A stretch of 64,000 nt of DNA from Eledone cirrhosa (lineage: Eukaryota): positions 40,362,001 through 40,426,000 of the forward strand of contig OZ024752.1 of assembly GCA_964016885.1 (NCBI GenBank), given 5' to 3'. A program made the translations under genes and the position numbers. The notes beneath the pieces are model-generated. The model made no database searches. It saw nothing but the letters and a program-made list of their open reading frames with translations, and had not been told where the DNA came from. Positions 49,801 to 62,720 of the stretch are shown one piece after another; position 1 is the stretch's first letter; every line of letters starts with the position of its first letter.

Positions 49801-50158
49801 CGATATTAAACAAATGGAAACTATATTTATAAAACCATATTTATTTCATTATACATATTTCGGGGATACCATATTAAAAATATACCAAACCAGCTTTTTA
49901 CATAACGGTTGGTCAATATTTCTGGTACGTCAAAATTATTTATAAAATGTTTATATATTGTATTTTATCTGAAGAAGGCATGCCATATTTTTAATATGGT
50001 ATCCCCGAAATATGTATAATGAAATAAATATGGTTTTATAAATATAGTTTCCATTTGTTTAATATCGTATATCTACTCCAAAACTTGTCGAGTGCTTTAT
50101 ATCAGTTATAAAATATTTACTTGTTGTAACCCAACAATTTTATATAAAACTTTTGCAT
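49801..50158 (+). mobile_element. Penelope-like fold-back element family 1 in (TA)n
   Basis: Inverted arms ~49801-49882 and ~49986-50067 plus ACTCCA..GAGTGC tail. Confidence 0.7.
49961..50026 (+). ncRNA. Hammerhead ribozyme motif, family 1
   Basis: tattttat-CTGAAGA-aggcatgccatatt/aatatggtatcccc-GAA-ATATGTAT-A-atgaaata (A-C mismatch at base of stem II). Confidence 0.7.
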
Positions 50159-50204
50159 ATATATATATATATATATATATATATATATATATATATATAT
50201 ATAT

Positions 50205-50400
50205 AACGAAGGAAATGTGGTAAGGAACCAGGTGGACCATAACGCACCAAAGTACTCAATACTTGAGGTAGTAGAGTGGGTAATAGGAACCAGTAAGACC
50301 CCGACAGCTGAGCTCAAGCCGTTTCGACGGCTAATTCTTGAGTCCAGAATTAGCCGTCGAAACGGCTTGAGCTCAGCTGTCGGGGTCTTACTGGTTCCTA
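50205..50400 (-). mobile_element. Fold-back element family 6 (half-hammerhead hairpin) in (TA)n
   Basis: Perfect 55-bp arms 50284-50338 and 50346-50400; second copy at 56827-57022. Confidence 0.7.
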
Positions 50401-50450
50401 TATATATATATATATATATACTTATTGATTTTTATTTTCTATCATTACAG

Positions 50451-51606
50451 ATGGATCCAAACTATGACAGACTATGTCATTGGCTCAAACAAATGGAACT
50501 GGAGCAGTATGCATCAGTGTTCAAGAAAAATGGAATATTACATCTTGAACAATGTGCATACCTTAATAGTGAGAAGTTGGACAAACTTGGTGTTAAACTT
50601 TCAGGTCATCGTAAACGAATCCTTGCTAATCTTCCTAATACGAGTGACTACCTCTTGGCTGAAAACTTATTCTCCGATCATTTTGAATCACCAAGTCCCC
50701 CTATACTTCCACCAAAAGTCAAACCTGTGCACCGTAAAGATACAGACGTACTCTTTGGTGTATCTGCTGCACCAACTAGTAATTCTGATTTGGGCTCATA
50801 TTTGGAGAAGCCTGTTCCTAAACCCCGAACAAGTGTTTGTAAGAAAAATGAAGAGGAATATTTACGCCCTGTTCCCAAACCCAGGGTTAGAACTAACACG
50901 CCTGTTAATGAACTTGAATCTAAAGCAACACCCAGTGCATTTACAGACCCAACACTTCCTTCCACAGTAGATGATTATTTCATTATGATTCCAACAGTTA
51001 AAGCAAATTGCTCAAAAGGATGTGAAACCCAAACCAGAAGCCATTCAACACTGATAGCATTTGATCCTCTTTTTCTTGAAGAAATCAATAATAATGACTG
51101 CAGTGAGACAACAAAACCTAATGATTGCAGTAACACTGATAAAAACGAAACTATCAATGATTTTGGTTCTAGTGAGGGGAATAAGCCAGCTTTATATGAA
51201 GATCTTTGGTGTTTAAAAAGTAAAGCACAAGACGATAGAGTATCTCAAGATGATAATAATACTGAGAATCAGGTCAGCTCTGATGATTGTCCTTGTGAAG
51301 ATTTTGATAGGAAACCTCCTCCATATCCACCTCCACAGTTACCAGTGAAACAACCTCCTCCAATACCTCCAAGAATTAATGAGAAACCTAAGTCTGTTGA
51401 TGAATGTGAAACCCTTAATGCTTTCCCAAATAACGACCCATTTGAGGATTTTGGCTCAGAATGTGATATGTTCAATAAAAGGGCTTTTCCAACAATTGGA
51501 GATATGGAATTTGATCCCTTTGGACATTTCCAAAATACATTTAGTCCCAACATGCGGCCATATCCATACCCTTCACTTTCTAAATTAAATCCCACGGGTC
51601 AAGCAG
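50451..51606 (+). CDS. ARAP: Coding exon: N-terminal SAM domain plus proline-rich region, probable first coding exon of an ARAP-family (ArfGAP/RhoGAP/ANK/PH) protein
   Basis: Pyrimidine tract and CAG acceptor at 50448-50 directly before ATG; donor CAG|GTAAGA at 51606/7; SAM signature WLKQMELEQYASVF..LDKLGVKLSGHRKRIL followed by PVPKPRT/PVPKPRV as in ARAP N-termini. Gene identity is less certain than the exon because the downstream domains are not in view. Confidence 0.85.
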
Positions 51607-51897
51607 GTAAGACATCTTTTTCATCTTTCCATGTTAAATGTTGGCAGTTTGAATATTTTTTCTTAACATTCATTTGTTCATGTCAACATCTAAAGTCTGT
51701 TTCGAGCCCAGAAGCTCATAAAGTCTGTGCTTATCCTAGTTTCTTTGGTGTTAAGTGACTGAAAGTACCCGTTGATAAGCAACACCTTCCTCAACATTCT
51801 CCCCTCTCATACACCTCCCTTTGTGGTAACCATCCCTCCCCTATTAGCTATGTCCGTACATTCCCCAAGCTTCCTCCTCCCTCTCTAGTTCCAAGAC

Positions 51898-52462
51898 AAA
51901 AGCACCCAGTCCCCACTGTAAAGTGGTCGTGTAGGTGACACGACGGAAAGCACCCAGTCCCCACTGTAAAGTGGTCGTGTAGGTGACACGACGGAAAGCA
52001 CCCAGTCCCCACTGTAAAGTGGTCGTGTAGGTGACACGACGGAAAGCACCCAGTCCCCACTGTAAAGTGGTCGTGTAGGTGAGACGACAGAAAGCACCCA
52101 GTCCCCACTGTAAAGTGGTCGTGTAGGTGAGACGACAGAAAGCACCCAGTCCCCACTGTAAAGTGGTCGTGTAGGTGAGACGACGGAAAGCACCCAGCAC
52201 ACACTGTAAAGTGGTCGTGTAGGTGACACGACGGAAAGCACCCAGCACACACTGTTATGTGGTCGTGCACAACGAAAAACTCCCAGCATACACTGTAAAT
52301 GTGGTCGACGTTAGGAAGGGCACCCAGCTGTAGAAATCAAACCAAAATCTGCCCCGGGTGAGCTAAACATGGTCCTCTGACCTGATTTTCTCCCTAATGG
52401 TCAATCCGTCCTACCCATGCTAGTGTGGAAGATGGACGTTAAACGGCGATGACAATGATGAT
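51898..52462 (+). repeat. 48-bp tandem array (~7.5 units) inside a SINE-A/RTE-tail-type element
   Basis: AAAGCACCCAGTCCCCACTGTAAAGTGGTCGTGTAGGTGACACGACGG units leading into the TTAGGAAGGGCA..CCATGCTAG..GGACGTT tail. Confidence 0.85.
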
Positions 52463-60305: not shown

Positions 60306-60804
60306 AAGCATGGCTGTCCATGGGAACTCCTGTATGTCAACATCTTAGTCCTCAAAGTAAGGTTATCCATGGGACCTCTTGTATGTCAACATCTTAGTCC
60401 TCAAAGTAAGGTTATCCATGGGAACTCCTGTATGTCAACATCTTAGTCCTCAAAGTATGGCTGTCCATGGGAACTCCTGTATGTCAACATCTTAGTCCTC
60501 AAAGTATGGCTGTCCACGGGAACTCCTGTATGTCAACATCTTAGTCCTCAAAGCATGGCTGTCCATGGGAACTCCTGTATGTCAACGGCTAAGTCCTCAA
60601 AGCATGGCTGTCAATGGGAACTCCTGTATGTCAACATCTTAGTCCTCAAAGCATGGCTGTCCATGGGAACTCCTGTATGTCAGCATCTTAGTCCTCAAAG
60701 TAAGGCTGTCAATGGGAACTCCTGTATGTCAACATCTTAGTCCTCAAAGTAAGGCTGTCCATGGGAACTCCTGTATGTCAACATCTTAGTCCTCAAAGCA
60801 TGGC
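60306..60804. repeat. 49-bp minisatellite, ~10 copies
   Basis: AAGCATGGCTGTCCATGGGAACTCCTGTATGTCAACATCTTAGTCCTCA unit. Confidence 0.95.
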
Positions 60805-61186
60805 CATAAGGGTTTGAAACAGGAAAGTAGCCAATGTAAGGATGCGATGGAAAATGCTGTGTGGGAGTAACGAGAAGCACATCAAGATATGCAGCCAATC
60901 TCAGACCAGAAACTTGGCCTGGGTGCTTACATGGGAACAAGGTCAGAAATTTTGGCAGGGATGAATGATTGATTATATGAAGCAGTACTTAACTGGTAAT
61001 TATTTTATCAACTCCAGAAGAATGAAAGACATCAAGGATGTTTCAGAACAGTTGTCTCACAATTGCTATTTCCACTCCACCTTTGTCGCTTCTGCTTACC
61101 TTCAGTGTTATTTTAATTTCTCTTATTGACACTCTCTCTTTCATACTATCACACCAGTCCACAAACACTCAGCAAACACCCTAAAG

Positions 61187-61476
61187 CAGAGGTCCCCCAA
61201 CCACCAGGCTGTGGACCGGTACTGGGCCATGGATCATTTGCTACAGGGCCCTAATGAATTAACTTGTTTAAAATTATATAATAGATAAATTGAATATTGG
61301 ACTTCAATTTAAAAAGATTTACATGAGAATCAAAAGATTATACACTTTTTCTTCCCTTTAATAAATTGCTCTCTTTAGCGAAATGCACTTAAACAACACA
61401 TGTTCAGCTCCCAGTCCGCAGAAAGATTGTCTGGCATGAAGCCAGTCTGTGGTATAAAAAAAGCTGGAGACCACTG
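61187..61476. mobile_element. hAT (Charlie-type) MITE
   Basis: CAGAGGTCCCC...GGAGACCACTG TIRs; exact 8-bp TSD CCCTAAAG (61179-86, 61477-84). Confidence 0.9.
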
Positions 61477-61997
61477 CCCTAAAGTACTCATGACTCCTAC
61501 CAAATCAAACTGTACTCACCCTCCAAGTTTGGCAAATCATTGTATTCTATTATTCTATTTTGTTCTGATAGAATCGTAAACTATAGAATTCACAGACTTG
61601 ATGTATGATAATATGATAAAAGTTGTCCATTTTTCCAAACTGATCTTTACTAGCTGTTTACTTTGGAGCTATATATATATATATATATATATATATATAT
61701 ATCGATGTTTGTAGTTATCATATAAACATATGAATTTTTTAAAACTAAACATAAGATCATTACTTTTCACACATTATGGACACGTGTCTCAGGAATACTG
61801 ATATTTTCAATATAGTGCCTGGTTTTTATACATATTTTTTATACATATTAATACTTCTACATTAAAACATAGGGTTTTTATGCCTCGCCTATGTCTGGTG
61901 ACTTTTCATTTTTCTCTCTATATAACAGCTGGTTTCTCTCCTAACCACATATATCTCCCTTACATTAATACTAGAGCTAAATAAAAGAATAAATAAA

Positions 61998-62321
61998 TCA
62001 TCATCATCATCATCATCATTTTACGTCCGCTTCTCCCTGCTTGCAAGGGTGGGACGGGAACTGATTCTGGCTTGATTTCTACAGCTGGATGCCCTTCCTA
62101 ACACCAACCTCATTTACAGTGAGTGCTGGGTGCTTTTTTGCCGTGGCACCTACACGACCACTTTGCAGTCCCTATCATCTCATTTCTACAGCTGAGTAAA
62201 CTGGAGCAATGTGAAATAAAGTGTCTTGCTCAAGGAAACAACACATCACCCGGTCTGAGAATTGAACTCACAACCTTTCGATTGCAAGCCCAATGCTCTA
62301 ACCACTAAGCCATGTGCCTCC
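61998..62321 (-). mobile_element. SINE family A, hairpin-deleted subtype
   Basis: Same deletion junction as 38926-39240. Confidence 0.9.
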
Positions 62322-62654
62322 AAATAAATGTATCATTGATACGTTTACTCAACGGATGTCCAACTACATATTTTTCTATATATATATATATATCTATCTC
62401 TATCTATTTCCTCTCTCTATATATATCTCTCTCTGGTTCTTTACATGAAGTTCTTCTCTTTATCTATCTTTCCATCTCTCTATTTTGTTCCATGCATTTC
62501 TTCTTTTTCTTCTTTTTCTTCGTTTTCTGTCTTTCTTTTTTCTCTCTTTCTTTCTTTCTGTTTACAATTTTTTCACTGCCAATTCAACTTTTCAAATACA
62601 AGTCGATGTTATACGGTATGTCAAATCTATTTATCTATAAAACTGTTTATATTG

Positions 62655-62720
62655 TATTTTGTCTGAGGAAGGCATATCATATTGTTAATATGATATCCCT
62701 GAAATATATATAACGAAATA
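62655..62720 (+). ncRNA. Hammerhead ribozyme motif, family 1 (single-arm copy ~62590-62762)
   Basis: tattttgt-CTGAGGA-aggcatatcatatt/aatatgatatccct-GAA-ATATATAT-A-acgaaata. Confidence 0.85.

Follow-up and report, generated by a model that had tools for sequence, protein, structure and literature searches.

The 64,000-nucleotide (nt) stretch of the Eledone cirrhosa genome studied here (assembly GCA_964016885.1, contig OZ024752.1, positions 40,362,001 to 40,426,000; hereafter the window, with coordinates counted from its first letter) contains five copies of a motif. These are very probably type I hammerhead sequences belonging to the pLTRs (terminal repeats) of an abundant Penelope-like element (PLE), a retrotransposon with Hydra-clade protein motifs, the stems having been kept paired by selection at the level of the source elements. 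The best overall explanation, namely pLTR hammerheads of a Hydra-like PLE with stem pairing selected in active parents and inert copies in the window, was accorded a probability of roughly 0.85. An earlier note made from the letters alone had described these motifs (family 1) as showing covariation in stems I and II around an invariant core; that reading is correct in essence and overstated for stem I, and stem covariation is already in print for PLE hammerheads (PMC4209133).

Hammerhead motifs in the window

The CUGANGA boxes of the five motifs start at 20124 (−), 49969 (+), 52840 (−), 52983 (+) and 62663 (+), and the motifs are referred to as the 20.1, 50.0, 52.8, 53.0 and 62.7 copies. In each case the box is followed by a helix II of 27–31 nt, GAAA, an 8-nt palindrome ending in an AUA triplet, and the 3′ strand of stem I; helices I and II flank the core and the ends open in helix I, as in the type I layout. 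The core residues in established hammerhead numbering, which is consistent with the papers cited here, are C3 U4 G5 A6 N7 G8 A9, G12 A13 A14 and the A15.1-U16.1 pair, and all five copies carry them. The free position N7, previously said to take T, A and G, was indeed found as U, A, U, U and G, respectively. Whereas CUGANGA alone was not enriched (31 in the window against 23.4 expected), the full architecture was. A search of the window with Rfam gave no hammerhead match at gathering score, and none at E ≤ 10 among the best 150 of 182 matches.

The 50.0 motif occupies 49961–50026 (+), with stem I at 49961–68/50019–26, CUGAAGA at 49969–75, helix II at 49976–50006, GAAA at 50007–10 and predicted cleavage after A50018. 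The 52.8 motif (52784–52848, −; C3 at 52840, predicted cleavage after 52792) and the 53.0 motif (52975–53039, +; C3 at 52983, predicted cleavage after 53031) proved to be the two arms of a single palindromic insertion (52746–53077, 92.7% self-match), so that the window contains four insertions rather than five, although every string quoted for the five motifs is present. The 62.7 motif lies at 62655–62720 (+; C3 at 62663, predicted cleavage after 62712), and that of the 20.1 subfamily at 20071–20133 (−; C3 at 20124, predicted cleavage after 20079), with an extra C before C3 (20125) that is private, occurring in 1 of the 30 closest genomic matches.

Alignment of the five copies gave 84 paired cells out of 85, and 5 of 17 pairs changed on both sides, a result matched by 2 of 500 shuffles, a control that ignores relatedness. 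A helix II that varies between copies and yet remains paired was thereby upheld in outline, with three departures. Position 4 is a C.C mismatch in all five copies (49979/50003 in the 50.0, 52993/53016 in the 53.0 and 62673/62697 in the 62.7 copy), and the 50.0 copy has an additional A.C at position 1. The change at position 8 of the 62.7 copy, an apparent compensatory double change, is a private mutation: the U at 62677 is confined to that copy, the pair being a G.A mismatch in 29 of its 30 closest genomic matches.

The parent element

A 24-nt tag 3′ of the motif gave 45,024 exact genome matches (control 0), and the core pattern 102,504 matches genome-wide compared with 111 for the reversed control. 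The tag lies within a conserved segment 3′ of stem I (50027–50058, +, in the 50.0 copy) that is identical in the five copies and part of which is predicted to lengthen stem I by pairing with the 5′ side. Near-identical genomic siblings of the window copies numbered 110, 1,247, 707 and 1,087 first-look candidates, 40 of each being scored.

Two loci, L121 and L122, were found to be full units consisting of a motif, a frameshifted reverse transcriptase (RT) and endonuclease frame, a 1.4-kb 3′ untranslated region (3′UTR) and a second, identical motif, with motif-to-motif spacings of 3,816 and 3,826 nt; they are flanked by (TA)n and include a truncated arm in inverted orientation. The first motif precedes the initial ATG of the RT frame by 187 nt, and the second follows 3.8 kb further on, lying 49 nt short of the usual 3′ end. 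The majority of copies of the family are 5′-truncated ends embedded in (TA)n, and an inverted arm is frequently present. Identity of the open reading frame (ORF) beside motifs of each subfamily was 97–100% for the 62.7 type, 86–89% for the 50.0 type and 78% for the 53.0 type. Two contig sets, X4 and X1, covered the unit with no end pile-up or intron-like joint, contigs being unable to show ends.

The element protein contains RWR, DKT, YRDD, IVY..YVG, CxCX5C and CxxC..E..N..CxH, and is without CCHH; in L122 the cysteine motifs read CNC-X5-C, CDLC and CKH, and CNC was present in 25 of 26 homologues. A total of 88 homologues was found, and the GIY-YIG profile scored above cut-off in 1 of 8. Neither Pfam, applied to three ORF pieces, nor a PDB sequence search with the protein gave a match. 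The set diagnostic of the Hydra clade comprises an RT, a C-terminal GIY-YIG, RW[KR], DKT, CxCX5C, no CCHH, and CxxC/CxH, and the clade already includes an Octopus bimaculoides family, Hydra-1_Obim (Craig et al. 2021, PMC8557442). Insertion into (TA)n, a pLTR with a hammerhead and inverted truncated copies are further Hydra-clade features seen here, and judged by its sequence the element likely belongs to that clade. An initial label, Neptune, was dropped because the protein motifs fit the Hydra set.

At L153, L175, L204 and L257, palindrome junctions were observed at which inverted sequence takes the place of one arm's 5′ flank immediately upstream of stem I, which suggests template switching near the hammerhead during insertion.

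Covariation in helix II

The main sample consisted of the first 100 tag matches, picked regardless of ribozyme, of which 88 were parseable and the 12 without a parseable hammerhead were left out; 60 more regions were added, and 1 of 135 rows was dropped for an internal deletion. Some 30 rows picked for a non-C at position 4 inflate that column in the pair-state and covariation tables, and were not used for the conclusion on the C.Y mismatch reached below. Covariation was assessed by a G-test with average product correction against a tree-simulated null, using our own script modelled on R-scape and not R-scape itself. Because the columns of helix II pairs 2, 5 and 6 were anchored on the core without gaps, they were not fitted to the structure; pairs 7–10 were bulge-adjusted in 26 rows.

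Pair states scored in 99 insertions showed exchange at pair 2 (A-U 56, G-C 36, G-U 8), pair 5 (A-U 51, G-C 39, G-U 5, A.C 4) and pair 6 (U-A 72, C-G 27, U-G 2). Pair 8 was C-G in 74, G.A in 9, A.A in 8, C.A in 4 and U-A in 1, this last being the 62.7 copy, and pair 1 was A-U in 75, G-U in 11, A.C in 8, U.U in 6 and A.A in 1. When the tree-aware test was applied to 98 unique family-1 rows, pairs 6, 2 and 5 were the top three of 4,005 pairs; over the 22 proposed pairs their E values were 0.004, 0.011 and 0.028, respectively, and that of pair 8 was 0.085. Equivalent treatment of 175 gap-free rows from all families placed helix II pairs 6, 3 and 2 and the helix III pair 15.3-16.3 as the top four, all with E < 0.05 over 18 proposed pairs, pair 6 having an E of 0.013 over all 1,596 pairs. 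The helix II covariation thus survives a tree-aware test, albeit modestly, being significant for pairs 6, 2 and 5 over the proposed pairs and not over the full set of family-1 pairs.

An independent test with 58 rows gave 97.2% of 754 cells paired, compared with at most 60.5% for slid controls, and its 63 two-sided cells were reached by none of 500 shuffles. On the sense strand G-U states were far commoner than A.C states, and it is likely that subfamilies swapped stem pairs stepwise via G-U intermediates.

Stem I

The earlier note had singled out an A-U to G-C double change in stem I (tattttat/atgaaata versus tattttgt/acgaaata). Both strings occur in the window, and the pair concerned, 2.2-1.2, was recorded genome-wide as A-U in 26,274, G-U in 17,621, G-C in 2,141 and A.C in 112 copies, using patterns that overlook the 20.1 type but pick up copies of sister families as well. 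C was present in 10.8% of copies with a G background and 0.42% of those with an A background, and the A.C copies, among the matches listed, were scattered over many subfamilies. Since A.C is rare and C has spread only opposite G, the pair is supported, though by few events; since the G-U state is common, the double change becomes a two-step path through a wobble, and its covariation was not significant (E 2.6 over the 22 proposed family-1 pairs).

Core, flanks and the probable site of selection

An analysis of private and shared changes, in which 82 rows represented 61 insertions, detected no shared substitution at the 11 core positions, whereas N7 had four states. Private substitutions numbered 8 of 671 in the core and 22 of 3,327 at other positions (p = 0.14); since the parse tolerated no more than one change in each core box, the damage to the core will if anything have been underestimated. 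G8 was mutated in 506 copies against 46,148 intact, the mutants being scattered among the 100 matches listed, and the core of single copies decays by about 1%, like other sites. The core is consequently invariant between subfamilies, N7 being free, and mutates as freely as its surroundings within individual copies, the outcome that had been named as damaging to the idea and that does not extend to shared substitutions. Nor does an invariant core contrast with all of its flanks, because a 34-nt stretch 3′ of stem I was as invariant as the core in the five-row alignment.

Stem changes on internal branches kept pairing in 28.4 instances and broke it in 10.6, the corresponding figures for terminal branches being 26.0 and 36.5. 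Comparison of the reference unit with three distant subfamily copies gave about 50–56% identity in the middle and distal 3′UTR, 81–88% in the endonuclease frame and approximately 85–100% in the ribozyme module. A core fixed between subfamilies and decaying in inserts, plus internal-branch changes that mostly keep pairing, together place selection in the source lineages, as had been surmised, and the stems likely stayed paired through selection on the sense-strand RNA structure of active parent elements. The inserted window copies, by the same token, are likely to be inert fragments.

A conserved mismatch in helix II

At helix II position 4, 102,504 motifs had C and 4,609 had another base, the latter, among the matches listed, being mostly scattered point mutants; the partner base, which was not set by the search pattern, was C or U in nearly all rows. 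The adjoining pair 3 is G-C, A-U or U-A according to family, and the C.C/C.U mismatch is kept across these families. No expanded subfamily in the samples had changed C to G, although the helix would thereby become perfect, which argues against palindrome correction at the DNA level. The mismatch was absent from the Hydra hammerheads of Craig File S2, as parsed there (PMC8557442), and from the 22 distinct motifs of the 23 of 78 Hydra-like metagenome loci in which a hammerhead was found. Isolated position-4 mismatches do occur in Cervera Fig. S3 (PMC4209133), and a literature search, which did not extend to Lunse 2017 or to figures, found no prior description of a C.Y mismatch. On this sequence evidence its retention across families may be a new detail, and the mismatch itself may be functional.

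A more speculative proposal, regarded as rather doubtful, is that octopod Hydra elements constitute their own hammerhead subclass, with a helix II of three pairs, a fixed C.C/C.U and a further helix, conserved in at least five motif families, the mismatch serving as a tertiary contact with an extended stem I or as an RT binding site. If so, it would replace the usual contact between loop II and stem I and activate an otherwise weak dimeric ribozyme in approximately 100,000 genomic copies.

Proposed mechanism

The putative helix III, an 8-nt palindrome (AUAUAUAU or AUAURUAU), would be unable to close within one molecule, and pairing as a dimer is proposed because it is self-complementary; it stays palindromic in the sister family (AUGCGCAU). 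The cleavage triplet AUA is present, and a helix III is predicted solely when two motifs come together (−2.2 to −3.2 kcal/mol). In the proposed scheme both pLTR motifs within a single transcript would pair through helix III and cut slowly after AUA, trimming unit-length element RNA out of a read-through transcript, with circularisation as a possible sequel. That copies end 49 nt beyond the cleavage site fits reverse transcription from uncut or circular RNA. Dimer self-cleavage is somewhat favoured as the selected function.

Several results weigh against the overall explanation, the mechanism included. Over all pairs, the E values of helix II pairs 6, 2 and 5 rose to 0.65, 2.0 and 5.1 and no family-1 pair was significant, there being only 6–15 substitutions per pair. 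In the 58-row test, pairs with two-sided change numbered 4 compared with 3.3 in shuffled data (188 of 500), with no excess, and extra pair types were not above the shuffle (470 of 500). Some expanded subfamilies have a broken helix II at position 1 (A.C, U.U, A.A) or position 8 (G.A, A.A, C.A), and the 20.1 subfamily is tied to an ORF by a single locus, L113, at 48% identity. Little stability is predicted for the family-1 dimer helix, and in a competing fold the 5′ strand of stem I pairs with the GAAA core, a pairing that the RNAalifold consensus of the 58 rows chose over the hammerhead stem I. In an anole PLE, moreover, insertion in vitro did not require cleavage by the hammerhead, and no ends in RNA-seq data mapped to the site (PMC11167929).

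Alternative explanations

The anole result, the weak dimer helix and the competing fold would suit a fold under selection as a signal by which the RT/endonuclease of the element recognises or positions itself on the RNA, or by which cDNA is primed close to the 3′ end, cleavage being slight or absent. Both the location of the motif, 49 nt from the insertion end, and the conservation between subfamilies of the segment 3′ of stem I, which equals that of the core, are in keeping with such a role. By way of contrast, the 11 catalytic core positions are without shared substitution while the known free position N7 takes four states, and the palindromic helix III covaries between families. A recognition signal is, on balance, considered rather unlikely.

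The paucity of independent events, the lack of significance over all family-1 pairs and the readiness with which these elements form palindromes might instead reflect shared ancestry of a few subfamilies, or DNA-level correction of palindromes by template switching, rather than selection on RNA. However, the top-ranked pairs were helix II pairs in both alignments, pair 6 reached significance over all pairs when all families were considered, pair 2.2-1.2 tolerates G-U but not A.C on one strand only, and the C.C mismatch persists even though a single change would perfect the hairpin; this explanation is accordingly considered improbable.

Three of the motifs share a strand with the first coding exon (50451–51608) of a neighbouring ARAP-like gene, as they would were the window copies functional host ribozymes on its transcript, a notion rendered hardly credible by the approximately 1% decay of core positions, as at other sites, and by the many near-identical young siblings elsewhere in the genome. 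Furthermore, with 250 nt of context the hammerhead helices of four of the five copies, and stem I of the fifth, have a predicted probability of 0 as a result of the inverted arms; no host function is suggested for the window copies. Finally, non-LTR (long terminal repeat) retrozymes, which are short, tandem, non-coding elements with circular RNA, also carry type I hammerheads in very large numbers (126,247 motifs in axolotl; PMC7229834), but that reading, the least probable of all, is largely refuted by dispersed and inverted copies running into an ORF-bearing 3.8-kb unit rather than tandem monomers, and by the absence of a tandem array of the motif within the window.

Comparison with known systems

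As in published PLEs of the Hydra clade (PMC8557442), an RT is followed by a C-terminal GIY-YIG, and the protein motifs are shared, as are the choice of (TA)n as target, a hammerhead in sense orientation close to the 3′ end, truncated copies that are inverted, and tails; the present unit differs in its length of 3.8 kb, with a 1.4-kb 3′UTR, published units being generally below 3 kb, and its hammerhead is unlike that of Hydra-1_oBim in sequence (PMC8557442). Hydra-like PLE frames were also observed in marine and other metagenome contigs (L277–L354), 23 of 78 having a sense hammerhead with a 3–4-bp helix III, and these loci extend the known range of the clade.

Covarying families of PLE hammerheads, and minimal hammerhead ribozymes (min-HHRs), have been described, and those with a small palindromic helix III cleave weakly as dimers (Cervera and de la Pena 2014, PMC4209133; review PMC6765202). 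The present motifs differ in that A9 is not followed by an unpaired base and G10.1-C11.1 is usually replaced by another combination (A-U, G-U, U.U or A.C); they also have a longer stem I and the conserved C.Y mismatch. The min-HHR consensus, with an unpaired base 9/10.1 and G10.1-C11.1, was tried and set aside, the covariation fitting a register without the extra base, though the A.C subfamilies could adopt the min-HHR register. A palindromic short helix III and association with PLEs are shared with the dimer-cleaving hammerheads with a short stem III of Lunse, Weinberg and Breaker (2017; per review PMC6765202). Type I hammerheads and very high copy number in animal genomes are likewise shared with non-LTR retrozymes (PMC7229834; bioRxiv 10.64898/2026.07.22.740005), but the motifs described here are neither tandem nor stand-alone, being ends of an autonomous element; in view of the axolotl figure, their copy number is no record. 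The list in Cervera Fig. S3, so far as available, includes no cephalopod (PMC4209133), and the accessible part of the Octopus vulgaris repeat annotation mentions Penelope-like elements and no ribozyme.

Insertions and other features of the window

The whole 50.0 insertion (49793–50156) comprises an inverted truncated arm (49793–49883) and a sense arm with hammerhead, conserved 3′ segment and a tail of about 90 nt, within (TA)n flanks. The single palindromic 5′-truncated insertion at 52650–53077 is centred at about 52912, with a tail on its left arm and (TA)n on both sides. The 62.7 motif belongs to an element 3′ end of approximately 0.75 kb (61701–62761, +) that is 93–97% identical to the full-length unit L122 and is broken by an insert with a tRNA-like segment (61998–62322), while the 20.1 copy has a partial inverted arm with a tail (20188–20358). 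The tRNA-like segments recorded at 62255–62312 (−), 18291–18354 (+), 45777, 38084, 32019 and 24353 are likely to be heads of a tRNA-derived short interspersed nuclear element.

Other hammerheads were also observed. A sister family (family 2) at 20709–21754 has hammerheads at 20825 (−), 21426 (−) and 21566 (+), with the palindromic helix III given above and C.U at helix II position 4; its full units, L269 and L270, have a related ORF with an RT about 55% identical. A third family, with a copy at 32325–32390 (−), has a helix II of the form GGU C ACAG.../...UGU C ACY with a C.C mismatch as in family 1, and a G/C-rich stem I; the copy in the window has an extra TA in helix III. An inverted pair of a smaller hammerhead at 44523–44708 (C3 at 44552, −, and 44679, +; CUGAUGA A GGGU gau ACCC A GAAAC) is nearer the min-HHR type and belongs to a different element.

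The segment at 50451–51608 (+) is a large first coding exon of an ARAP-like gene, with a SAM domain followed by a proline-rich region, for which matches were obtained to ARAP-like proteins from Octopus (62%) and from Argonauta (56%); no other exon within the window was matched by ARAP-like homologues. Just upstream, a near-perfect 50-bp inverted repeat between (TA)n tracts (50288–50396), with similar sequence in L122 near 730–780, is likely to be another short mobile element. Tandem arrays of 48 nt and 112 nt, at 51899–52267 and 62879–63446, are made of pieces of a common dispersed repeat.

Significance

The family is of modest importance in itself, and adds a very large cephalopod representative to the known PLE hammerheads. 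Given that cleavage is dispensable in vitro in the one element tested, its natural series of subfamilies (70–100% protein identity, plus a sister family at 55%), throughout which the core, the C.Y mismatch and the 3′ segment stay constant against a scrambled UTR, represents a good test bed for establishing the role of the hammerhead in PLEs.

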